In this document: piece by piece, positions 4,849-57,270 of the stretch
How the letters are laid out: every line of letters begins with the position of its first letter
Numbering within the stretch: the stretch's first letter is position 1
NCBI GenBank assembly: GCA_001822835.1
Contig: MHSS01000013.1
Location: 10,321-74,320, forward strand
Reading direction: 5' to 3'
From: Candidatus Terrybacteria bacterium RIFCSPHIGHO2_01_FULL_48_17
GTDB taxonomy: Bacteria > Patescibacteriota > Minisyncoccia > Terrybacterales > 2-01-FULL-58-14
DNA: 64,000 bases
The notes under the pieces: model-generated
What the model saw: only the letters and a program-made list of their open reading frames with translations
Told to the model about the DNA's origin: nothing
Database searches by the model: none
Position numbers and translations under genes: made by a program

Positions 4849-4925
4849 CCAATGCCCCAAGCTCAAATATCCAATTCGTCGAATTGGTAATTATGATTTA
4901 GACATTCATCGGACATTTATTGGAT

Positions 4926-4953
4926 ATTGGGATTTTGACATTGGGATTTTCAC
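4926..4953. repeat. Intergenic repeat family A (ATTGGGATTTTGACA x2), partial copy, 7 nt upstream of the mreB start
   Basis: attgggattttgacattgggattttcac is the reverse complement of the tandem aaatcccaatgtcaaa units at 33804-33834 and resembles 10196-10215. Confidence 0.5.
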
Positions 4954-4959
4954 AAAATT

Positions 4960-7058: not shown

Positions 7059-7109
7059 TTTTGTATTTCGAATCGTCGGTTTGGATTTTGGGTTTTGGAT
7101 TTTTTGTTT

Positions 7110-8213
7110 ATGCGCTTAGCTTTTGTTACGGAGCCACTTACGCGTTTTGGTGGGGCAGAAAAAGTGCTTCGCGTTTTGCATGAAATGTATCCTGACGCTC
7201 CGATCTACGCACCCTATTATGACCCAGTCGTGGTCGCACGGTTTTTTCCCAAGGCAGAAGTGCGTACCTCCTTTTTACAACGTTTGCCATGGCGCATGCT
7301 GGGGGCGCGCATGCTCTTGCCGCTGCTTGCAGTGGCGGTTGAGTCGTTTGATCTCCGTGATTTTGATCTAGTTGTTTCTTCAAGCTCGGCATTTGCAAAA
7401 GGGGCAGTTACGCGCTCCCATGCCCGTCACGTGGCGTACGTACATACACCACCCCGGTTTTTGTGGGAAGACCGCCATCTTTATCTTGAGGCGCTACGAA
7501 TGCCACTAATAATAAAATGGGGTATTGCCCCTCTTCTTCATTGGTTGCGCACGTGGGATCAGCATACCGCATACCGGGTTGATGGTTTTTTCGCAAATTC
7601 CAGCTATACAGCGCAAAGGGTTAAAAAATATTGGGGAAAAGATGCGCAAGTACTTTACCCTCCCGTAGATACACAATCGTACGCTGGCGATGCAAACTCC
7701 TTTCCGCAAAAACCCTATGCGCTCGCAATTTCTCGTTTTACTCCCCACAAACGTCTTGGGCTTGCGCTCGAAGCATTTCATCGGTTACCGGCACTGTCAT
7801 TGGTAATTGTCGGCGAAGGACCGCAGGAAGGGCTTTTAAAGAATCAAGCGCCGCCAAATGCCGTTTTCCTTCCCTGGCAGGAAACGGAGAACCTTCGTAC
7901 CCTTATGGCACATGCAGAATTTTTCGTAATGCCACAAGTCGAAGATTTTGGAATTACCGCGATTGAATCAATGGCAGAAGGAACTCCTGTGCTTGCATAT
8001 CGTGGTGGCGGGGCGCTTGAAACCGTGAAAGAAGGAGAGACCGGAGAATTTTTTGACGATCAGGACGTATTTTCGCTTGCTAATGGTATCCGTAGAATCC
8101 GTGAAGGGGTGCGTCGGGGCATATATAGAAAACAATTTCTACAAGAATATGTTCAGCGCTTTTCCGAAGATAAGTTTCGCAGCACTGTGGAAAACCTCAT
8201 AAGCCCCTCATAA
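7110..8213 (+). CDS. Glycosyltransferase family 4 (second copy)
   Basis: EDFGITAIESMAEGTPVLAYRGGGALETV motif. Start chosen at ATG 7110 (MRLAFVTEP) because 7095-7109 belongs to a TTTGGATTTTGGG repeat. Confidence 0.8.
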   Translation: MRLAFVTEPLTRFGGAEKVLRVLHEMYPDAPIYAPYYDPVVVARFFPKAEVRTSFLQRLPWRMLGARMLLPLLAVAVESFDLRDFDLVVSSSSAFAKGAVTRSHARHVAYVHTPPRFLWEDRHLYLEALRMPLIIKWGIAPLLHWLRTWDQHTAYRVDGFFANSSYTAQRVKKYWGKDAQVLYPPVDTQSYAGDANSFPQKPYALAISRFTPHKRLGLALEAFHRLPALSLVIVGEGPQEGLLKNQAPPNAVFLPWQETENLRTLMAHAEFFVMPQVEDFGITAIESMAEGTPVLAYRGGGALETVKEGETGEFFDDQDVFSLANGIRRIREGVRRGIYRKQFLQEYVQRFSEDKFRSTVENLISPS

Positions 8214-9853: not shown

Positions 9854-9951
9854 GGCCTCTCCTTTTTTGTTGTAAAAATAAACTACGGTGTCTTTCTAGC
9901 ACCGTAGCGTTTTGTTGTCAATTCTGATATCTGATCTCTGATTTCTGATTC

Positions 9952-10195: not shown

Positions 10196-10315
10196 ATGAA
10201 AATCCCAATGCCAAATGAAATTTCAAGTTCCAATATCAAAAACCGAACGCGCGAACCTTGGACATTATGTCATTGGGCATTTATTTGGCATTTGAGCTTG
10301 GGCATTCCGCGTGTA
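10196..10315. repeat. Intergenic repeat family A, full-length copy (about 120 bp) between ssb and rpsR
   Basis: gaaaatcccaatgccaaatg ... catttatttggcatttgagctt parallels 33804-33920 (aaatcccaatgtcaaa ... atttatttgacatttgagcttt). Confidence 0.5.
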
Positions 10316-11261: not shown

Positions 11262-12284
11262 TTATATACGAAAAGTCAGGACATCGCCATCTTGCACAGT
11301 ATACTCGCGTCCCTGTGTTTCGACAAGCCCCTTCTCGCGTGCCTGTGTAAATCCTCCCGCGGCAACTAATTGGTGCCACGGCAGCGCATCGCACTTTATG
11401 AATTTTTCGGCAAAATCACTATGCACCATTGCTGCAGCTTCTACGGCCGTGGTACCTGTTTTGCAGAGCCATGATCTAATTTCGTTTCCACCGGCTGCGG
11501 TGAAAAAGGTTATAAGCGAAAGGAGTTTTTTTGCTGCCGCAATAATATCTGGGGCGCAAGATATAAAGCCAAGCTCGCGCAATTCCTCCGGAGAGAGTGA
11601 TTGGGCGTCAAGTTCCGTTTGCGCATCCAGCACACTGGCAGCAATATCTCTTGGCGAGGGTTTTGCGCCATTGAGAACAATTAGCATTGGTTTCGCAGAC
11701 AAGAGGGGAACTTCCTTCAAATAATCTACTACTGATATATTTCCTCTCACGTGTTGTTGCGCAGAGATGCCACGCCCAAATGCCTCGCGCATATCTTTCC
11801 AGACGGCAAGTGCTTGCTGCGCGGTTTTTTCTCCCGACCGGGCCATGGCCTCAAATCGTTGAACCTCCTTCTCTGCGGTTTCAAGATCTTTCATAATAAG
11901 CTCTGTCTCGAGTATAGATAAATCATCTTTTGGCTGGGGACTATCGGCAATATCTTTTGTAACAAAATTGCGGAGTACAACAATAATGACATCGGTTTCT
12001 CTGATATGCGCCAGAAATTGGTTGCCCAACCCCTCGCCTTGGTGCGCGCCTTTCACTAAGCCGGCAATATCTATTACCTCAATAGTTGCTGGGGTGCGTT
12101 TTGCGATACCGAGGATTTCTGCAAGCTTATCGAGACGTTCGTCTAAAATGGCGATCACGGCTCGGTTAGGGTCAATTGTGGTAAAAGGGTAAGGCGCAAT
12201 AGCGACAGATTGTCTAGAGAGCGCCGAAAAAAGCGTTGATTTGCCCGCGTTGGGAAGGCCGACGATACCTAGGGAATAGGGCAT
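11262..12284 (-). CDS. ychF: Ribosome-binding ATPase YchF (Obg-family GTPase with C-terminal TGS domain)
   Basis: GIVGLPNAGKSTLF Walker A, DIAGLVKGA, and C-terminal TGS (..GFIKAEV-like: FIKCDALPWHQLVAAGG...REKGLVETQGREYTVQDGDVLTFRI). Confidence 0.9.
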   Translation of the reverse strand: MPYSLGIVGLPNAGKSTLFSALSRQSVAIAPYPFTTIDPNRAVIAILDERLDKLAEILGIAKRTPATIEVIDIAGLVKGAHQGEGLGNQFLAHIRETDVIIVVLRNFVTKDIADSPQPKDDLSILETELIMKDLETAEKEVQRFEAMARSGEKTAQQALAVWKDMREAFGRGISAQQHVRGNISVVDYLKEVPLLSAKPMLIVLNGAKPSPRDIAASVLDAQTELDAQSLSPEELRELGFISCAPDIIAAAKKLLSLITFFTAAGGNEIRSWLCKTGTTAVEAAAMVHSDFAEKFIKCDALPWHQLVAAGGFTQAREKGLVETQGREYTVQDGDVLTFRI

Positions 12285-12311
12285 AGGGTACAGGGTTTAG
12301 GGTACAGGGAT
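12285..12311 (+). repeat. G-quadruplex-type motif (GGG-N4)x4, repeat family C
   Basis: aGGGtacaGGGtttaGGGtacaGGGa, directly abutting the ychF start codon (on the non-coding side) and 34 nt upstream of suhB. Confidence 0.4.
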
Positions 12312-12344
12312 TAGTTCCATAACGCAACGTGGTAGAATAAAATC

Positions 12345-16575: not shown

Positions 16576-16681
16576 AAAACGAGGGAATAGGAACCAGGGA
16601 ACAGGGAATAGCGGAATTGACTCTTTATTTTGATTCTGTTATCATTCTAGCGAAGTTGTTTGACAAAGGAAAGGAATAGAA

Positions 16682-25944: not shown

Positions 25945-28821
25945 ATGCCCGAACCAGACGTAATTCGTATCAAAGGTGCCCGCGTCCATAATCTCAAAAA
26001 CGTGGATGTGGACATTCCGCGCAATAAGCTCGTGGTGATCACGGGCATTTCTGGTTCGGGAAAGTCGTCGTTGGCGTTTGATACATTGTATGCGGACGGC
26101 CAGCGCAGATACGTTGAATCGTTGTCTGCCTACGCGCGCCAATTTTTGGGCGCCATGGAAAAGCCGGACGTGGACACCATTGAAGGGATTTCACCCGCAA
26201 TCGCCATTGACCAAAAAAGCGTGTTGCGCAATCCGCGCTCCACGGTAGGCACCATTACCGAAATTTACGATTACTTGCGGCTTTTGTTTGCACGCGTAGG
26301 AACGCCGCATTGTCCTGAATGCGGACGCGGGGTATCTGCACAAACGCCAACGCAGATCGTGCGACAAATCTTGGCTTTGCCCAAAAAAACAGAAATTTCT
26401 CTTTTGGCTCCTATCGTCCGTGAACGGAAAGGAGAGTATCGCTCACTTCTTGAAGAGATTGGCCGTGCTGGGTTCCGCCGTCTGCGCCTTGATAGCGAGA
26501 CCTTGCCGCTGGAAGAAGCACTAGAAAGGAAGCTTGAGCGCTACAAAGCCCACTCTATTGAAGTTGTGATTGATCGTCTAACGGTCGGGGGTTCAAAAGA
26601 TGACAAACTGCGCATTTCCTCATCAGTAGAGACGGCCCTGAAAATGGGTAAAGGAATACTCATTGTTAATAAATCCAAAGCTCAAAGCACAAAATCTAAA
26701 AACGATACCGAGGATTTATTGTTTTCGGAGGCGTTAGCGTGTGAACACTGCGGGATTAATCTTCCGCCCATTGAGCCGCGCACTTTCTCATTTAATTCTC
26801 CGCATGGCGCATGCCCCGTATGTACCGGCATCGGCTATAAATTGGAGGTTGACTCAAAATTGGTTATACCAAACCCGCGTCTCTCAATTGCCGAGGGCGC
26901 GATTAAAGCGTGGATGTCTGCATCACATCGGGTAGGAAGGCAATCGTGGTACTGGTGGATGCTCGAGGAGCTTGCCCAAAAACTTGGATTTGATGTAAAT
27001 ACGCCATGGGAGAAGCTTTCCGCCAAAGTGCAAAAAGTGGTGCTCTATGGAGAAGAACAGGATACGGGGGAAAGGATACAGGGGACAGATGGCACCGACG
27101 GGAGATTCGAAGGGGTGATCCCAAACTTAATGCGGAGATGGAAGGAAACGGATTCTGATTGGACGCGCGGCGAGATTGAAAAATATATGCGCATTCGGAT
27201 ATGCGAGGCCTGCCAAGGGAAACGCCTTCGGCCTGAAGCGCTTGCCGTTAAAATCCACGGCCATACTATTGATGAAGTAACAGCGCTGAGCATTGAAGCT
27301 CTCGATGCTTTTTTCCGTACGTTTCTTTTCGGAAAAGAAAAATTAAGCGCAAACGAAGCAAAAATCGCAAAACCAATCGTAAAAGAGGTATTAAATCGTC
27401 TTAAGTTTTTATTAGAGGTTGGGTTGCCGTATCTTGCGCTTGATCGTTCGTCGACCACATTAGCAGGCGGCGAAGCACAACGGATACGGCTCGCAACGCA
27501 AATTGGCACGCGTCTGACGGGGGTGCTTTATATTTTGGATGAACCCTCCATCGGGCTTCATGCGCGCGACCAGGAGCGACTCATCGAAACGCTGAAGGAA
27601 TTACGCGACTTGGGCAATACGGTTGTAGTGGTTGAGCACGACCCACAGACGATCAGGGCGGCAGATTGGGTTATTGATGTCGGTCCCGGAGCAGGGAAGC
27701 ATGGCGGCCGGATTACGTTTTCCGGAACACCAAAAGAGCTTTTTCGATCAAAAACGTTAACCGGTGAGTATCTTTCGGGAAAGAGAAAAATCGCTGTTCT
27801 TCCAACAGGAAAACAGAAAGAAAAAGGAGAAACGAAGTATTTGGTTGTGAAGGGCGCGCGCGAACACAACCTGAAACATATTGATGTTTCGATTCCGCTT
27901 GGAAAATTTGTGTGTGTTTCTGGCGTTTCCGGATCGGGCAAGTCATCTTTGGTCAACGATATTTTGGGTCGGGCTCTCATAAGATATTTTTGGAAGGCAA
28001 AAGATGAGCCGGGAGCGCACGCCAGTTTGGAGGGTCTTGAATATTTGAATAAAGCAATCATTGTTGACCAATCACCCATAGGTCGCACACCACGTTCAAA
28101 TCCGGCAACATATACGGGTGCATTTACGCCCATTCGCGACCTTTTTGCATCAACGAAAGAAGCGAAGGTGCGTGGTTATGGCGCCGGCCGTTTTTCATTT
28201 AATGTAAAGGGCGGCAGATGCGAAACGTGTCAAGGTGAGGGAATGCAAAAAATCGAGATGCAGTTTTTGCCGGACGTGTGGGTTGAGTGCGAAGAGTGCA
28301 ACGGCACGCGTTATACCAAAGAGGCGCTTGAGATTGAATGGCATGGAAAAAACATCGCCGAAGTTCTGACTATGACGATTGAGGAAGCAGCAGCATTTTT
28401 TTCCTCGATTTCATCAGTATCTACAAAATTGCAGACCCTTACGGACGTAGGGTTAGGTTATATGCAGCTTGGACAGCCAGCCACCACGCTTTCCGGTGGT
28501 GAGGCGCAACGGGTGAAACTTGCGACAGAGCTTGCGCGGAAAGCAACCGGCAAAACGCTCTATATTTTGGACGAACCGACAACGGGCTTGCACTTTTCCG
28601 ATATCGAAAAATTATTGAAACTTTTGCGCGGCCTGGTCGAAAAGGGTAATACTGTTTTGGTGATCGAACACAACCTTGATGTCATCGCTAATGCCGATTG
28701 GGTGATTGATTTAGGGCCCGAAGGGGGAGAGGGTGGAGGGCACATTATTGCCAGCGGGAGGCCTTTGGATCTTATAAAAAATAGCAAAAGCTACACAGGT
28801 CAGTTTTTGAGAAAAAGGTGA
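25945..28821 (+). CDS. uvrA: Excinuclease ABC subunit A
   Basis: Two ABC ATPase modules ([17 protein letters not shown]; [13 protein letters not shown]), zinc-finger Cys clusters (CEHCG...; CETCQGEG...CEECNGTRY), 958 aa. Confidence 0.95.
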
Positions 28822-30556: not shown

Positions 30557-31540
30557 ATGCTAAAACATATTTTATCCCAATCAATTCTTGCGACGGTGGC
30601 GTATGCGGATGCGCTAAACATGCCGCTTACCGCAATGGAGGTATGGCGGGGATTGGTTGGGGTACAGGGCACAGGGTACAGGGGACAGGGAATAGAGAAT
30701 AGGGCAAAGAACGCTTCGAGTTTTTCAGAGATTTTCTTTATGCTCAAATTACTAAAAGAGCAAAAGAAAATCTCGGAGCAGCGCGGCTTTTATTTTTTGC
30801 CAGGGAAAGAGGATTTGGTTGCGGAGCGCTTGTGGCGCATGCGGGTGGCGGACGAAAAATGGAAAAAACTGATGGGTATTGTGCGGTGGTTGCGCGCGGT
30901 TCCTTTTTTGCGGGCGGTTTTTGTTACCGGTTCTTTGGCGTTAAATAACACGCGCGAAAATAGCGACTACGATATTTTTTTGGTAAGCGCTCCCGGCCGC
31001 ATTTTTACTGTACGGTTTTTTGTAACACTTATGTTAAAAATGTTTGGCATGTATCGTTCGGATGCATGTGTAGCGGATCACGTCTGTCCCAACCACTATG
31101 TTACCGAGCGAAGTTTAGCGATTCCGTTCCATTCGCTCTACACCGCCCATATTTTTGCAACATGCGTGCGCACATGGAGCGTTGACCAAGATATCAAGGA
31201 ACGGTTCATGCATGTAAATAACTGGATACATGACTATATACAAATAGCGCCAGAAATCCCTCGCGCAAATCGGCATACGCTTCCGGATATATGGGTTGCG
31301 AAAATAATACGCGGTATTGGCGAGGTTACGTTGGGCCCGCCCGTGGGCGGGGTATTGGAAGGGATGGCTCGCTTCCTCCAGCTTGTCAAAATCCGCGCAA
31401 ATCCCAAAACAAAGTATCCTGGCAGCGGACACGTGGTCGCAAACGATGAGATGTTGGCATTTCATCCAAGCTCACCCGAATTCGGGGTACTTGACAAATA
31501 TCATACTAATATGCTACAATATAAAACGTCAGTAGATTGA
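30557..31540 (+). CDS. Pol-beta-superfamily nucleotidyltransferase domain protein (hypothetical)
   Basis: GSLALNNTRENSDYDIFLV fits the hG[GS]-x10-DxD minimal NTase motif. An alternative start at ATG 30740 lies downstream of a GGGTACAGGG repeat tract. Confidence 0.55.
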   Translation: MLKHILSQSILATVAYADALNMPLTAMEVWRGLVGVQGTGYRGQGIENRAKNASSFSEIFFMLKLLKEQKKISEQRGFYFLPGKEDLVAERLWRMRVADEKWKKLMGIVRWLRAVPFLRAVFVTGSLALNNTRENSDYDIFLVSAPGRIFTVRFFVTLMLKMFGMYRSDACVADHVCPNHYVTERSLAIPFHSLYTAHIFATCVRTWSVDQDIKERFMHVNNWIHDYIQIAPEIPRANRHTLPDIWVAKIIRGIGEVTLGPPVGGVLEGMARFLQLVKIRANPKTKYPGSGHVVANDEMLAFHPSSPEFGVLDKYHTNMLQYKTSVD

Positions 31541-33340
31541 GAAAGAAGGAATCCAAAAGAGAGGCGAAAACGGCTGTGGCCTGCGAAGGGATGAGGGCTA
31601 CGGTTCCCACGGTCTATGTTTTGCGGAGCCTGCGATGCGCGGAAGGACGAGCGGGGTGGAATAGCTCGTTTCTGGGGCGCCATCCTATCGCAATCTCCGT
31701 CCCCAAGCCGCTGGGCCAAAGAGGAAGAGCCGCGCCTCTCAAGGGCGATGGGATTGCCTAACACAATCCTTCGCTTCTCTTTTGGGTTTCTTATAGAGCC
31801 CCCTTGACAATGATGGTCGAGTTGTGCTAAGAGGAGTATACGATTTTAAAGATTAAATTGAGGTTCCTTCGGTTCTCTCCCTGCATTTATCATTCATCAT
31901 TAAGAATTATCACAAGACGAATGCAGAGAGAGGGCCGGATGGGCTCTCTTCTGATGAAATCCAGACGGCTGATCACCGTCTGGTCGGGTCCCAACCGTTG
32001 TTGCGCCCAAAAGGGGCATGCCCCGCCATCTTGCGGGGAGGAGCTATCCAAATCGCCCCTCGTCGGGTTTGCCTGGCGAGTATAAGCGAAGAGGAAGAGT
32101 TCTGCGGCAGCGGGGAGGCTGTGCCCGTTTATCGCCCTGTTGGCGATGGCGGGATCCCGCCCCGACGCTCTTGGGGACGCTCAAGAGAAGAAGGGGAAAT
32201 GCCTGATTGATCTGTCAAACAGTGGGGGCAAGCCGGACTTTCTTTCTGTCCCCCCTAAAGCAGCAGGGAGCGCAAGCGCTTGTGCGCAACGCTCGTCACG
32301 GCCCGGCGGTGGTCGAGAAGTTCTCTGCTGCAATTTAAGCACCTTTTCAAAAGAACGGATCCGAGGGAAACGATAACCTCGGAGCCCTCTCCCTGAACCA
32401 GTTTCATTTTCTGAACTCTGTACCCTGATGTCTGTACCCTGTTAACTGATTCAGAGAGAGGGACGCCCGTCTCTGCCGGTCTGGCTGGCACGTGTGGTGC
32501 CGGAAATGCTGGCTCCCGCCCGGCTCGATTGGAGCCGAGGGGCCTCTACGGGCGACCTCGCGCGATGGCGGCTAACCCGAGCCCTTTCCCGGGGCAAGCC
32601 CCGTCCGCGGCGGGGTGTGCAGGTTTCGGGCGATGCCGCAAAAAAGGTAGAATCATCTGAGGAGCGTGGAACCATTAAGGTTCCCGGGAAACTTGTGGGA
32701 AAGCGCTCCTCGGCCGGTCATAGTTCTTTGTTAGGGGATAAGCCCATTCGAGCCGATAAGTTCGGCTCTCCCTCCCTACATTTTTTTTCGAAAGCTTACG
32801 TGAAGAGCAGAAAGCGCCAACTATCTTTTTTTAACGCTTCTCTCTTATCACTTATTACTTTAAAGAATGTAGAGAGGGGGAGGATCTCTTTGCCGCAAGC
32901 TTCGGCGGAGAGGGTAGGGCCCGGGAATTCCTGCCCGAGTGCTACGAAAACGGCGCTCGAAAGCCTCGACCCCGCTTAATGAGGGTCGCTCCAGGGGGCT
33001 GCACAAACGCGGTCACTAAGTGCGGCGGTCAGTTACCGTCGCCGGAGCGGTCCAGCTCTTATTGCCGGAGCATCATAATCTCCGGCACCCCTCTCTGCAT
33101 TTATCATTCTTCATTTGTCATTGATAAATACAGAGAGGGGTTCTCACAACCCCATATTTTTACCCAGGGTCCGCCTGTAAAAAGGTGGCAAATGCCTAAA
33201 GGGCCCTAATGGTGTTTATACGCCCCGGTGTTGGCTCCAAGAGTCGATGCCGGGTCTTTCTTTATATACGAACTATGGGGGTCCGACCCCCATAGTATTT
33301 TTAGAAAAGCCTGCCGAAGAGTTTATCTGGGCTGGCTGAA
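31541..33340. other. 1.8-kb ORF-poor, GC-rich non-coding region with three related hairpins (CTCTCTG/CAGAGAG stems)
   Basis: No ORF over 161 aa on either strand, and none with recognisable motifs. Hairpins at 31866-31925, 32450-32474 and 33085-33137 (19-bp stem). Two hairpin loops begin CATTTATCATTC(A/T)TCATT. Confidence 0.4.
33274..33303 (+). terminator. Rho-independent terminator closing the ORF-poor region
   Basis: CTATGGGGGTCcgaCCCCCATAG tattttta. Confidence 0.55.
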
Positions 33341-33344
33341 GGGC

Positions 33345-33371
33345 TTGACAAGCCCTTTTGCTTTGTATAAA
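33345..33371 (+). promoter_or_regulatory. Sigma-70-type promoter for groES-groEL (TTGACA-15/16-TATAAA)
   Basis: TTGACA at 33345-33350, TATAAAT at 33366-33372, immediately upstream of CIRCE. Confidence 0.5.
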
Positions 33372-33387
33372 TAGATAAGTGGCGGCA

Positions 33388-33414
33388 TTAGCAGTAAACA
33401 CGTCGGACTGCTAA
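33388..33414 (+). promoter_or_regulatory. CIRCE operator (HrcA binding site)
   Basis: TTAGCAGTA-N9-GACTGCTAA is the 9-9-9 CIRCE architecture (consensus TTAGCACTC-N9-GAGTGCTAA), 100 nt upstream of groES. Confidence 0.8.
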
Positions 33415-33515
33415 TGAGAGAAGCCGATACGCGCCGATAGCCACGCTGATTTACGCTTAAGCTTATATCCGCGCAAATCCGCGTTGCAATCCGTGTTAAT
33501 TCATTTCTACAAATT

Positions 33516-33803: not shown

Positions 33804-33806
<3 letters not shown>
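33516..33806 (+). CDS. groES: Co-chaperonin GroES
   Basis: [14 protein letters not shown]...[24 protein letters not shown] 96 aa. Confidence 0.93.
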
Positions 33807-35568
<1,762 letters not shown>

Positions 35569-35608
35569 AACAGGGTTTAAGGTATAGATATCAGGGGACA
35601 GACACATG

Positions 35609-35641
35609 CCCCGGTGTACGCACACCGGGGCGCCCTCTTTT
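35609..35641 (+). terminator. Rho-independent terminator after groEL
   Basis: CCCCGGTGTacgcACACCGGGG cgccctctttt. Confidence 0.6.
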
Positions 35642-35649
35642 CCAATAGT

Positions 35650-36216
35650 ATGGTATACTATCTATATATGTTTACTATTTTTATCGTCGCTCTAGCGCTT
35701 TTGTTCTTTTTCGTCATATATCTTTATAATCGTTTGGTTGGTTTGCGGGTTCGTGTCAAGGAGGCATGGTCGGATATTGAGGTGCAGCTCAAACGCCGGC
35801 ATAACCTTATTCCTAATCTAGTCGAAACCGTAAAGGGATATGCAGGGCATGAAAAGGGCGTATTCGAGAAAGTCACCGAGGCGCGCGCAAAAGCACTTAA
35901 TGCGCAAACACCAAAAGAGCTGGGTGCGGCAGAAAATATGCTGACCGGGGCGCTCAAATCTCTGTTTGCGGTTGCAGAAGCATACCCAGACCTTAAAGCG
36001 TCATCTAATTTCGTTGAGTTGCAGCGCGAGTTGACGGATACCGAAGACAAAATCCAGGCAGCGCGGCGTTTTTATAATGCCAACGTGCGCGACTATAACA
36101 CCGCTATTGCCCTTTTCCCCGCAAACATGATGGCACAAATGTTTGGGTTTAAGGCGTCCGAATTTTTCGAAGTCGAGGAGGAAGAAGTGAGGTCAGTACC
36201 CGTAGTGAAATTCTAA
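35650..36216 (+). CDS. lemA: LemA family protein
   Basis: Single N-terminal TM then [44 protein letters not shown] ... [27 protein letters not shown]. Paired with htpX as is common. Confidence 0.8.
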
Positions 36217-36221
36217 AAAGA

Positions 36222-36355
36222 TACAATCACCAAGATACAAGGCACAAACAAATTTCAATAATCAACCTTCAAGAAACAAACGGGGTTTCGGTTATTGGGA
36301 TTTGAGATTTGTTTGGTTATTGTCTCTTGTATCTTGTTTCTTGTGGCGACGCTTT
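36222..36355. repeat. Intergenic repeat family B (about 130 bp, CAAGATACAAG / CTTGTATCTTG inverted termini)
   Basis: aagatacaatcaccaagatacaagg...cacaaaca...ggttattg..tttgtttggttattgtctcttgtatcttgtt. Second copy at 56878-56990. Confidence 0.5.
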
Positions 36356-36396
36356 ACACCCATCGTTCTTCAAACATCACCAAAACATTCGTGCTG

Positions 36397-37236
36397 ATGT
36401 TTACGTTTATTGTACTACTTGGCGTAATCGGGGCTGCTTTTTCGGCGTACTTTGAAACGCCGACTATTTTTTATATGGTGCTCGCGTTTTCCGTGCTCAC
36501 CACCTTTTTCTCTTATTGGTTTTCCGATAGGGTGGTGATCGCGCTTTCGGGTGCCAAACCCATTCAAAAACAGGATGATCCGCCATTATGGCGCATGATC
36601 GAAAACCTATCGATTACCGCAGGCCTTCCGATGCCAAAAGTGTATGTGGTGGAGGATCCAAGCCCCAATGCTTTTGCAACCGGGAGGGATCCAAAACATT
36701 CTGTTATTGCGGTAACTACCGGTTTGCGCCGGATGTTGGACGAATCGGAGCTTGAGGGAGTATTGGCGCACGAGCTTTCGCATATTGGTAACCGCGACAT
36801 GCTTGTCGCAACCATTGCCGCGGTGCTCGCCGGAATCATTGTGACCATCGTGCATATTTTTGTCCGTATGACGTTACGGGGAGGGCTTGGAGGGAATCGA
36901 CGGGGAAATGCTGGCGCCATTGCCTTAGTTGGTCTTATCGCCGCTCTTATTCTGGGGCCACTTGCCGCAACTTTGTTGCGCCTTGCGATATCCCGCAGCC
37001 GCGAGTTTTTGGCAGATGCGTCGGGTGCATTGCTTACGCGTTATCCGGACGGTCTTGCGCGCGCATTGGAAAAAATTGGCAACGCGCGGATTCCCATGCG
37101 GCATCGTTCAGACGCCATTGCGCATCTTTGGCTTTCTGATCCCCAAATTGAGGAACGCAAAACCTCATGGTTTGCAAAAATGTTTATGACCCATCCACCC
37201 ATGGAGGAGCGTATCCGCGCCCTTCGTCAACAGTAA
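36397..37236 (+). CDS. htpX: Zinc metalloprotease HtpX (peptidase M48)
   Basis: HELSHIGNRD (HExxH) and a downstream E in ...FLADASGALLT. Four TM segments. Start placed at ATG 36397 because 36295-36355 is repeat family B sequence. Confidence 0.82.
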   Translation: MFTFIVLLGVIGAAFSAYFETPTIFYMVLAFSVLTTFFSYWFSDRVVIALSGAKPIQKQDDPPLWRMIENLSITAGLPMPKVYVVEDPSPNAFATGRDPKHSVIAVTTGLRRMLDESELEGVLAHELSHIGNRDMLVATIAAVLAGIIVTIVHIFVRMTLRGGLGGNRRGNAGAIALVGLIAALILGPLAATLLRLAISRSREFLADASGALLTRYPDGLARALEKIGNARIPMRHRSDAIAHLWLSDPQIEERKTSWFAKMFMTHPPMEERIRALRQQ

Positions 37237-45524: not shown

Positions 45525-45534
45525 CAATTTGTAT

Positions 45535-45848
45535 TCCGGGGTAGCTCAATGGTAGAGCAGCTCCCTGTCTTAAGGCAGCTTTTGGGGGAAACCCCAAATG
45601 AAAAATTTCGGGATAACGGTGAACCCTTCGATCGGCATAGGACAAGCGTACCTAACGGTAAAGGCAACACCGTGGGAACCCCCGCCACCCCTTTTTATTT
45701 TATGGAAGGCGGGGGGCGCCGTAGAGACTAGATACCGAAACGCCTACCGTCGATTTTTTCGATCATGGCGATGATATAGTCCACCCTCGCAAGAAACTGC
45801 GAGATTCGTGTAAGGAGTTGGTTGTCGGTTCGAATCCGACCCCCGGAG
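45535..45848 (+). tRNA. tRNA-Asn (anticodon GUU) interrupted by a 242-nt group I intron in the anticodon loop
   Basis: 5' exon TCCGGGGTAGCTCAATGGTAGAGCAGCTCCCTGT; 3' exon TAAGGAGTTGGTTGTCGGTTCGAATCCGACCCCCGGAG. The acceptor TCCGGGG pairs with CCCCGGA. Spliced loop is CTGTTAA, U1 and discriminator G73 as in tRNA-Asn. Confidence 0.8.
45569..45810 (+). ncRNA. Group I self-splicing intron (no internal ORF)
   Basis: The 5' exon ends in U paired to G of the internal guide GCAG (45574-45577). The intron ends in G. Conserved-core elements are present: R-like CGTAGAGACTAGATACCG and S-like GATGATATAGTCCACC. Confidence 0.75.
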
Positions 45849-45851
45849 CAG
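45835..45851 (+). repeat. 17-bp direct repeat, copy 1 (3' end of tRNA-Asn): TCCGACCCCCGGAGCAG
   Basis: Identical 17-mer recurs at 46876-46892. Confidence 0.6.
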
Positions 45852-46130
45852 ATCTCGTGATTTAGGGTCAGAAACCATAAATCGTGAGAATGGAGACGTT
45901 TTGCGCGCCGCGGCAGAGACGCCGTAGCAAGCCATCGTTCGTGAGAGGACCTATTCCCTTTGGCGTAACCTTGATGCGCGGACCCTCCACCACGACGGCC
46001 TAGCGTATTGATTCTCTGGCGCCGTCATGTCCCTGTGTATAATCTTCGCGCTTGCCAGCTTCGCTTGCTCGTGCTACGAAGGAGATACAAACGCCTCACC
46101 CAGCCGAAAGGTCCGGTGAGGTCTTGTTAT

Positions 46131-56420: not shown

Positions 56421-56876
56421 ATGAAAAAACCATTCTCCTTTATTTTTCGAGCTCTTGATCGCTTAGCCCCGCCGCAGCGTGCCTATGCGCATTGCGATGT
56501 GCCCTGCGGCATTTATACGCCGGAGCCCGCACAAACCGCGGCCGATACCGTTGCCAAGATGGTTGAAAAGATACAGGCGCTTCCGAAAGAGAACCCGCCG
56601 ACAGAGGACACGCGAAATTCTTTCGTGCGCATGGTTGTGACAAAAGAAGAACATGCGGAAAAATGCAAGCGGGAATTGTTAATTCTGTGGACCGATTTTT
56701 TCAAACAGGAACATCTTGCCATGTTCCCCGATTTGCACCAAACGTTTTGGAAAGCAGCAAAGCTTTGCTCAAAAAACAAACAATCAGTAGATGCTGAGGC
56801 AGCAAAGCAATTGCAAGAAGCGGTTGCGCATATTGCCGAGATATTTGCAAAGGCGAAAGCAGCAGTAAGCAAATAA
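56421..56876 (+). CDS. sodN: Nickel superoxide dismutase precursor (NiSOD)
   Basis: Leader MKKPFSFIFRALDRLAPPQRAYA followed by HCDVPCGIYTPEPAQ (the His-Cys-x-x-Pro-Cys-Gly-x-Tyr Ni-hook) and ILWTDFFKQEHLAMFPDLHQ four-helix core. Confidence 0.85.
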   Translation: MKKPFSFIFRALDRLAPPQRAYAHCDVPCGIYTPEPAQTAADTVAKMVEKIQALPKENPPTEDTRNSFVRMVVTKEEHAEKCKRELLILWTDFFKQEHLAMFPDLHQTFWKAAKLCSKNKQSVDAEAAKQLQEAVAHIAEIFAKAKAAVSK

Positions 56877-56877
56877 C

Positions 56878-56990
56878 CAAGGAACAAGATACAAGATAAC
56901 AAACAAGATACAAATACCAAGACACAAACACCGCGCGAGTTTGGTTATTGATTATTGGAGCTTGTTTGGTTATTGTTTCTTGTATCTTAT
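56878..56990. repeat. Intergenic repeat family B, second copy (between sodN and sodX)
   Basis: aacaagatacaagataacaaacaagatacaaa...cacaaaca...tttggttattg...tttgtttggttattgtttcttgtatctt. Confidence 0.5.
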
Positions 56991-57270
56991 GAATATGTTT
57001 CGCCGTTTCATTATTGAAGGCATGAGCATGTTTCCGGCTTTTCGGCCTGGCGATCGAGTTGTAGCTTTGCGCAAGGCCGCATATCAGGCCGGGGACGCTG
57101 TGGTGGTTAAAGATCCCCGCGATGGGAGGATGTTGTTAAAACGCGTGCGCGCACACCGGGAAAATTCCTATTTTTTGGTGGGGGATAACCATGAGCAAAG
57201 CACTGATAGCCGTATGTTTGGCAGTGTTTCAAAAAACGCTATTTTAGGAAAGATTGTCGTAAGATATTAG
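56989..57270 (+). CDS. sodX: NiSOD maturation peptidase (signal peptidase I/S26-like)
   Basis: IIEGMSMFPAFRPGDRVV (catalytic Ser in a GxSMxP-type box), VVKDPRDG, LVGDNHEQSTDSRMFG (SPase box E-like). Start at ATG 56989 because upstream codons are repeat sequence. Confidence 0.7.
   Translation: MNMFRRFIIEGMSMFPAFRPGDRVVALRKAAYQAGDAVVVKDPRDGRMLLKRVRAHRENSYFLVGDNHEQSTDSRMFGSVSKNAILGKIVVRY

Follow-up and report, generated by a model that had tools for sequence, protein, structure and literature searches.

Hairpins built from degenerate heptamers in intercistronic spacers of a Candidatus Terrybacteria genome: probable miniature members of a widespread family resembling rRNA intervening sequences

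A stretch of 64,000 nucleotides (nt) from the genome of Candidatus Terrybacteria bacterium RIFCSPHIGHO2_01_FULL_48_17 (contig MHSS01000013.1, positions 10,321 to 74,320; the window, below) carries two related repeat elements, one between lemA and htpX and one between sodN and sodX. On balance, these two copies are probably miniature members, lacking an open reading frame (ORF), of a widespread family of hairpin elements that resembles the intervening sequences (IVSs) of ribosomal RNA (rRNA) genes. The family is termed family B. Its copies have multiplied within genomes, it is shared between phyla, and it lodges in the spacers of co-directional genes, often taking up all the room between a stop codon and the next start codon. 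Any particular way in which the elements might act or move is proposed with far less confidence than their identity.

Copy 1 (36218..36342) occupies the whole lemA-htpX spacer and copy 2 (56872..56988) the whole sodN-sodX spacer; both, with all their parts and the genes beside them, are read on the plus strand. The elements are 117-125 nt long and have the same layout: CAAnnnn heptamers on the 5′ side, a short loop of 4-10 nt and TTGnnnn heptamers on the 3′ side, which together form a long imperfect hairpin. In copy 1, the 5′ arm (36218..36281) is an A/C-rich series of degenerate heptamers in CAA phase that begins AAGATAC AATCACC AAGATAC AAGGCAC AAACAAA, with CAA-phase chains located at 36224-36283. 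It is followed by the loop GGGG (36282-36285) and by a T/G-rich 3′ arm in TTG phase (36286..36342), whose end, GGTTATTGTCTCTTGTATCTT GTTTCTT, is the core found across phyla. In copy 2, the 5′ arm (56872..56929) begins AATAACC AAGGAAC AAGATAC AAGATAA CAAACAAGATAC, the loop lies at 56930-56939, and the 3′ arm (56940..56988) ends in GGTTATTGTTTCTTGTATCTT, abutting the sodX ATG. The complete elements are 83.5% identical over 109 aligned bases and their 3′ arms 80% identical over 49 nt. Common to both are CACAAACA and a 3′ block, TTGTTTGGTTATTGTYTCTTGTATCTT, that agrees at 26 of 27 positions.

An initial annotation, made from the letters of the DNA, had described the pair as dispersed, non-coding repeats with inverted termini. 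Two copies do exist, with boundaries now refined to the positions above, and both are without an ORF. Of the internal blocks said to be shared, CACAAACA is in both copies, but the 16-mer tttgtttggttattgt is exact in copy 1 only and reads cttgtttggttattgt in copy 2. Inverted blocks are likewise present in both: CAAGATACAAG is exact at 36231-36241 with its exact complement at 36326-36336, and recurs at 56885-56895 with a complement at 56979-56989 that has one mismatch. With up to one mismatch it has 10 matches in the window, against 0.71 expected. These blocks are not termini, however. CAAGATACAAG and CTTGTATCTTG are two neighbouring heptamer units within the arms and are sub-terminal. What had been overlooked is the strict 7-nt periodicity and the extent of the family far beyond this genome. 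High-scoring stretches in the window occur at periods 7 and 14 only; the units of an element are unlike one another (AATAACC, AAGATAC, AAGAAAC, AAACAAT and others) and keep a conserved order, and no single 7-nt unit is repeated unchanged in tandem. Complementarity between the arms amounts to 73-80%, and the outer modules AATAACC...GGTTATT are conserved.

Family B is found in many other genomes. The 20-base core of the 3′ arm, GGTTATTGTNTCTTGTATCTT, was matched exactly in more than 118 stretches of a 596-Gb genome collection, a lower bound, where about one match is expected by chance. Among the matches listed, the metagenome-assembled genomes (MAGs) that bear the core are labelled Parcubacteria, Moran-, Kaiser-, Yanofsky-, Falkow-, Nealson-, Berkel- and Saccharibacteria, and further Omnitrophota, Planctomycetia (including Scalindua rubra), Dehalococcoidia/Chloroflexi and Ratteibacteria. 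Other MAGs have several family-B copies per genome. In an alignment of 34 elements from many phyla (MAFFT) the 5′ arm is conserved too, though it was absent from the search pattern. The consensus has the form AATAACCAATAACCAAGAnACAAGATACAAACAA ... CAAAC-loop-GTTTG ... ATTGTTTGGTTATTGTTTCTTGTATCTTGGTTATT, with units in the order AATAACC AATAACC AAGAAAC AAGATAC AAACAA ... loop ... TTGTTT GGTTATT GTTTCTT GTATCTT GGTTATT. With the window sequences left out, a profile made of 32 elements from other genomes recovers copy 1 at 36218-36341 (E=6.9e-27, model positions 1-132) and copy 2 over its full length (E=2.1e-22). CAA-phase arrays of four or more units number 310 in 816 kb of matched loci and 0 in shuffles. 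A viral collection yielded one chance coding match, to a single phage that came up nine times, and one single-arm match, and thereby serves as a background calibration for the core search. Carriage by phages, considered as a vehicle, gains no support from these two kinds of match.

A different reading would deny that there is a family at all, the arrays being independent products of replication slippage like the short tandemly repeated repetitive (STRR) sequences of cyanobacteria and other long simple sequence repeats. The strong 7-nt periodicity, the several different units and the many window spacers with such arrays are in keeping with this, as is a pairing of the arms that is generic and not specific to a copy. 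Heptamers are moreover the commonest class of long simple sequence repeats in bacteria, according to the summary of Mrazek 2007 given in PMC4679880. Slippage does not account, however, for degenerate units kept in a conserved order over about 130 nt and recognized by a profile at E values of 1e-22 to 1e-27, for an exact 20-base core so far above its chance expectation, or for the fixed polarity and the tie to one ORF family described next. It is considered highly improbable.

The same arms also enclose a gene. Family-B arms about 350 nt apart flank an ORF of 115 amino acids in L025 (Omnitrophota), L050 (Yanofskybacteria) and L101 (Moranbacteria), and likewise in the Parcubacteria loci L116, L079 and L080; the encoded protein is 62-82% identical across the phyla of these loci. 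It belongs to PF05635, "23S rRNA-intervening sequence protein" (E=5e-17 and 1e-18), and to TIGR02436, "four helix bundle protein". When metagenomes were scanned with it, at least 572 loci were confirmed (572 among the first 600 matching stretches). In the 70 best metagenomic loci of the ORF that have enough flank, the ORF is preceded by a CAA array and followed by a TTG array in 51, at least one of the two is present in 65, and the CAA arm is always the 5′ and the TTG arm the 3′ one, with the reverse arrangement in 0 of 70. The ORF is co-directional with the long ORFs beside it, as in the order leuC-ORF-leuD. A more distant PF05635 ORF, in L017, sits between arms of the family-A type (a second set of heptamer hairpins, described below), which hints that arm lexicon and PF05635 clade go together. 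Because these ORF-carrying relatives have the same arms, the window copies are read as miniature, non-autonomous derivatives, standing to the ORF-carrying form as a MITE (a miniature transposable element with inverted repeats) stands to an insertion sequence (IS).

Proteins of PF05635 are associated with the IVSs of rRNA genes, which are selfish stem-loops with terminal inverted repeats, some of them with an ORF of this family (PMC4990558). IVSs are excised by RNase III without ligation, and are sporadic in distribution and thought to be horizontally transferred (PMC4990558; PMC11270868). Knowledge of them and of their S23p/PF05635 ORFs dates from the early 1990s, yet no function and no way of spreading has been identified (PMC4990558). 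PF05635 ORFs occur also in rRNA insertions of the candidate phyla radiation (CPR) (PMC11270868), and the family is homologous to Avd, the accessory protein of diversity-generating retroelements (DGRs) (PMC10053308). The comparison was made with IVSs of 23S and 16S genes, including carriers of S23p/23S_rRNA_IVP (Leptospira, Coxiella, Xanthomonas) and the CPR rRNA insertions. Family B shares with them complementary ends and a long stem-loop, a PF05635 four-helix-bundle ORF in the loop of some members (here the relatives, not the window copies), many ORF-less hairpins of about 100-150 nt, a sporadic distribution and a host gene product that is not destroyed. It differs in position, as its elements lie between protein genes and not in helix 9, 25 or 45 of 23S or in 16S rRNA; none of 20 ORF-carrying loci checked had an rRNA match. 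It differs also in its arms, which are long degenerate heptamer arrays and not a simple 28-bp stem, and in being one sequence family across several phyla. Excision by RNase III has been shown for rRNA IVSs; for family B it is inferred only.

The initial annotation had called the structure MITE-like. The description holds in part, in that the repeats are dispersed, non-coding and hairpin-forming, with inverted ends and with ORF-bearing relatives. A classical MITE is a deletion derivative of a transposase-encoding IS that is mobilized in trans via its terminal inverted repeats and makes target-site duplications. Family B is like such elements (Correia/NEMIS, ERIC, RPE, Nezha) in being small, non-coding, intergenic and, in other MAGs, multi-copy, with inverted ends, with near-identical copies within genomes and with a miniature and a full-length form; it is likened to them also in co-transcription with neighbouring genes, which is frequent in MITEs and would apply here by inference. 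Target-site duplications are missing, however: no direct repeat was seen in the flanks of 79 inspected copies, contrary to what was expected of a MITE. Nor was a transposase parent found. The ORFs found between family-B arms encode PF05635 proteins only, with no recognizable transposase among them. Within one genome, the inner sequence varies between copies while the outer modules (AATAACCAATAACCAAGA ... GTATCTTGGTTATT) stay constant, a modular pattern unlike descent from one master element. A classical MITE is therefore regarded as very unlikely.

Another class of mobile repeat, the repetitive extragenic palindromic (REP) doublet that forms a hairpin (REPIN), does without classical terminal inverted repeats or target duplications; it is an inverted doublet that folds in single-stranded DNA and is moved by a REP-associated tyrosine transposase (RAYT), an IS200-IS605-type Y1 enzyme. 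Like REPINs and bacterial interspersed mosaic elements made of REPs (PMC3116915), family B consists of extragenic hairpin doublets in both orientations that multiply within genomes and lack target duplications, and conserved stem mismatches of the transversion type would fit recognition of an imperfect hairpin. The arms, however, are A+T-rich arrays of 50-60 nt and not GC-rich palindromes of 20-40 nt, and REPIN families are lineage-specific whereas family B crosses phyla. The associated ORF is a PF05635 gene, and no RAYT or other Y1 transposase was noticed beside the copies or in the window, though none was systematically sought. A REPIN-like origin is judged quite unlikely. Integron attC sites were also considered and set aside, as the ends are AATAACC...GGTTATT and not RYYYAAC ... 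GTTRRRY and the neighbours are housekeeping genes (groES-groEL, lemA-htpX, leuC-leuD). DNA uptake sequences, DGR template repeats and phase-variable heptamer simple sequence repeats were rejected as well; none of them agrees with units kept in a conserved order, a location that is strictly intergenic and a link to PF05635.

Among family-B matches with callable neighbours, the flanking genes are co-directional in 72, convergent in 6 and divergent in 6, and the 3′ core is antisense in 50 and sense in 22. One MAG has three copies at three loci that are 93-95% identical across 152 nt, and another has copies 94-98% identical at contig ends. The nearest relatives of the two window copies are copies in other phyla (L099 and L053), not the window partner. 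This bears on the possibility, named at the outset as a refutation, that the two loci arose when one spacer of this genome was duplicated in an ancestor. The identity of the copies over 109 aligned bases would agree with such a duplication, but the flanking genes are unrelated, and because each copy is closer to foreign copies than to its partner the possibility is excluded in practice; we consider it exceedingly improbable.

Occupancy of a given site differs between relatives. The lemA-htpX spacer holds family B in the window and in L111, a reverse family-B element in L118 and another heptamer hairpin in L039. It is empty in Terrybacteria RIFCSPLOWO2_01_FULL_58_14, where it measures 30 nt and contains a Shine-Dalgarno sequence. 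The groES-groEL spacer has a family-A element in the window, family B in L039, reverse family B in L067 and a further type in L118. The sodN-sodX spacer, including copy 2, is identical in 10 contigs from different samples and for this reason says nothing about gain or loss. Copies that are nearly identical across phyla, a sporadic occurrence and empty or replaced sites are consistent with horizontal transfer, that is, with spread rather than inheritance.

A further relative, whose HtpX is 89% identical, has in its lemA-htpX spacer a gene of 126 amino acids with a GxxExxY / PDDEXK_3 nuclease fold, bounded by different inverted arms of CA-type and TG-type. GxxExxY / PDDEXK_3 genes (PF13366, TIGR04256) of about 126 amino acids lie in intercistronic spacers in L145/L146/L147, which represent this relative, and in L097 and L061. 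They are bounded by inverted short-unit arrays that take up the spacer between stop codon and start codon. The GxxExxY loci are a second small-ORF family with this "hairpin cassette" build.

Both window copies are predicted to fold well, at -36.7 kcal/mol for copy 1 (z = -3.4 against dinucleotide shuffles) and -29.6 kcal/mol for copy 2 (z = -4.3). Folds computed for about 80 family members give an extended stem-loop formed by the complementary termini. RNAalifold returned no useful consensus structure from the MAFFT alignment, as the variable inner arms were aligned out of register. Rfam had no family matching the element at gathering score or at E values up to 10, the only matches being meaningless ones to microRNAs and small nucleolar RNAs.

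Several observations weigh against the proposed identity of the elements as members of a mobile, IVS-like family. The two arms of one copy match each other no better than they match the arms of other copies, and there is no copy-by-copy covariation, so that the hairpin is a generic property of two complementary lexicons. Sense-strand G-U mismatches do not significantly outnumber A-C mismatches (75 vs 63), and stem mismatches are mostly of the A.A or T.T transversion types. The lack of covariation and of a G-U bias gives no sign of selection for RNA structure on the transcribed strand. To the lack of target-site duplications is added the finding that the 64-kb window lacks genes for a transposase, a nuclease or a PF05635 protein. 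The window and a 19-kb extension, about 83 kb of this genome in all, contain only the two family-B copies; the many further copies are in other genomes. To our knowledge, no enzymatic activity is assigned to the PF05635 protein, which may be cargo rather than driver. The window copies may have lost a gene or may never have had one, as both loss of the ORF and insertion of an ORF into pre-existing hairpins are possible directions. Taxon labels of MAGs can be wrong, which would inflate the range of phyla; however, for each of CPR, Omnitrophota and Dehalococcoidia there are many independent MAGs.

The junctions with the flanking genes are tight, with 0-1 nt of other sequence between the window copies and the stop and start codons. 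The lemA ORF (35614..36216), identified by LemA homology to relatives, ends in a TAA stop codon (36214..36216) 1 nt ahead of copy 1. The htpX start codon, GTG at 36343..36345, comes directly after the last heptamer of copy 1 and has no Shine-Dalgarno sequence. It was set by homology: VATLYTHRSSN aligns with the MATLYTH/MPTLYTH N-termini of homologues that have unambiguous starts, and an HtpX homologue of 297 amino acids (P0002) is called with a matching N-terminus. The NCBI HtpX of this genome has 279 amino acids (P0001), and homology puts the start 18 residues earlier (gene 36343-37236); gene calling was probably led astray by the hairpin and by the lack of a Shine-Dalgarno sequence. At the other locus, the sodN stop codon TAA (56874-56876) lies inside the first heptamer of copy 2, and sodX starts with the ATG at 56989 or with a second ATG at 56995, both positions being used by gene callers. 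The spurious N-terminal codons through which the repeats had originally been noticed are real, in that the mechanically derived ORFs 36295..37236 and 56941..57270 begin within the 3′ arms. No promoter-like or terminator-like site was seen in the lemA-htpX spacer.

This arrangement bears on the possibility that the elements belong primarily to the host, evolved to its advantage and act in cis as intercistronic RNA, whether in translational coupling, in protection of the upstream mRNA, or as a U-rich leader bound by S1 or cold-shock proteins in place of a Shine-Dalgarno sequence. The window hairpins of this build all span from stop codon to start codon, and the genes downstream of them are without a Shine-Dalgarno sequence while other window genes are led by one. 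In several CPR genomes, the groES-groEL and lemA-htpX spacers carry such hairpins, and heptamer repeats before starts of this kind have been proposed as translational signals in Beggiatoaceae (PMC4679880). Set against this are the two orientations of the elements, with sense in the minority (22 vs 50), the empty lemA-htpX site in one relative, the missing strand-specific G-U excess, and a near-identity across phyla with sporadic presence that fits spread and not inheritance. In Omnitrophota-type genomes, the element is followed by a normal Shine-Dalgarno sequence (GGAGG) ahead of the start codon. That the element takes the place of a ribosome-binding site is consequently not a general rule; it holds in the CPR examples and fails in these genomes. 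A host function of this sort is thought unlikely.

If the elements are instead insertions of the IVS-like family, as preferred here, their tolerance within operons might be explained by processing. The element would be transcribed within the lemA-htpX and sodN-sodX messages and would fold into a hairpin of about 45-55 bp. RNase III probably cuts the stem, by analogy with rRNA IVSs, and such a cut would make an insertion inside an operon tolerable. Messages for htpX and sodX, with no Shine-Dalgarno sequence, could then be read from the very short leader that remains after cleavage. Alternatively, ribosomes that terminate at the upstream stop codon might re-initiate, as the stem would bring this codon beside the start. 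A more far-reaching proposal, which we offer as speculation and rate as improbable in its entirety, is that the heptamer arrays are the binding lattice of a pentameric, Avd-like PF05635 protein. Arms and protein would together constitute an unrecognized mobile unit that inserts precisely between stop and start codons in operons, spreads between phyla and is harmless through RNase III removal or stem-mediated re-initiation. Were this so, the "23S rRNA IVS protein" family would have a function, and rRNA IVSs would be only one landing site of a larger class.

A search by keywords and sequence strings of the searchable literature, whose coverage is incomplete, brought up no account of such elements. 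The published phenomena that come closest are rRNA IVSs, REPINs and MITEs, together with arrays of heptamer repeats such as TAACTGA. The function and spread of IVSs are touched by the finding that PF05635 ORFs with heptamer-array arms lie within everyday operons of CPR, Omnitrophota, Chloroflexota and Planctomycetota, the metagenome scan having confirmed at least 572 loci. Hairpins without a gene, which either derive from a PF05635 ORF-carrying element or serve as its host, are common in those groups. The IVS question becomes testable with a 130-nt consensus, with filled, empty and replaced sites in close relatives and with a protein-DNA/RNA pair. For annotation, the arms cause spurious N-terminal extensions and hide starts that have no Shine-Dalgarno sequence, as at htpX and sodX.

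As with the cyanobacterial STRR sequences and the TAACTGA arrays of Beggiatoaceae, Cyanobacteria and Bacteroidetes, family B has a 7-nt period, is intergenic and often precedes starts without a ribosome-binding site (PMC4679880). A patchy phylogenetic distribution that suggests horizontal transfer is likewise a shared trait (PMC4679880). Those arrays, however, are tandem, with one identical unit and no complementary arms, whereas family B is degenerate, ordered, hairpin-forming and tied to PF05635. Another point of contact is the heptamer TTGGTCA, which is common in family-B arms and is the STRR2 unit. BOX elements of Streptococcus pneumoniae combine conserved terminal modules with variable internal ones, have strong secondary structure and an intergenic location, and have no known mobilizing enzyme. 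Family B resembles them in its modular build, secondary structure and position between genes. It differs in that the sequences are unrelated, in module size (7 nt, against about 45-59 nt in BOX) and in range, BOX being confined to one genus.

Smaller hairpins are nested in some family-B elements. Mini-hairpins of about 20 nt (e.g. GCCTGCCTGCCGGTAGGCAGG) occur in the 3′ arms in several genomes at one and the same point, between TTTGTTT and GGTTATT, and further small hairpins, rich in G+C, are lodged within arms or loops. The loci with mini-hairpins and nested hairpins are L031, L085, L089, L111 and L122, and also L047, L011 and L107. Their presence suggests insertion of still smaller elements.

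Hairpins of the same build but with another lexicon are found in the window. Family-A-type heptamer hairpins, with the unit set AAATCCC / CAATGTC / CCAAAT, are located in the groES-groEL spacer (33807..33923, plus strand; AAATCCC/CAATGTC units in inverted repeat), in the aroA-mreB spacer (4849..4959, plus strand) and downstream of ssb (10198..10308, minus strand). A further one lies in the rpmJ-rpsM spacer just upstream of the window (L142 6480-6643). The arms at 4916-4949 and 33805-33838 are 94% complementary. These hairpins run from a stop codon to a start codon without a Shine-Dalgarno sequence (mreB, groEL, rpsM), the groES-groEL element ending at the groEL ATG (33924). The family-B profile finds window hairpins of other lexicons weakly, at E values of 1e-5 to 1e-3; the values are 2.8e-5 for the groES-groEL element, 1.2e-4 for the aroA-mreB element and 1.5e-5 for the element by ssb. 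The family-A-type hairpins look like sister families of family B.

A third heptamer lexicon, nnnAGGG / CCCTnnn (e.g. GGGTACAGGGCACAGGGTACAGGGGACAGGG), is present at 12258-12314, 16582-16611, 30646-30710, 32406-32442, 35570-35600 and 27059-27088. Arrays of this lexicon stand directly 5′ of the starts, again without a Shine-Dalgarno sequence, of minus-strand genes at 12284 and 16575, and there is an inverted match of 34 nt between the sites at 30660-30693 and 32406-32439, 1.7 kb apart. Two single-arm arrays have no partner. One (7059-7109) consists of TTTGGAT/TTTGGGT units directly before the ATG at 7110. The other (9854-9951, minus strand) consists of AATCAGA units after a stop codon and is followed by an ordinary terminator and a gene led by a Shine-Dalgarno sequence.

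The window has two further features. A group I intron match at 45555-45803 on the plus strand, within 45525-46007, scores 46.5 bits against a gathering score of 50 (E=2.7e-10) and is located within an apparent split tRNA gene, with a 5′ half beginning GGGGTAGCTCAATGGTAGAGCAGC and a 3′ half ending GGTTCGAATCCGACCCCCGGAGCA, for which ARAGORN made no call. The region 31765-33515, about 1.75 kb, is G+C-rich and has a single weak ORF (32494-32979) and no Rfam match at E<=0.01. It contains two 92%-identical copies of CTCYCTGCATTTATCATTCWTCATT (31877 and 33091), each part of a strong hairpin, and could represent one or more unannotated structured RNAs.

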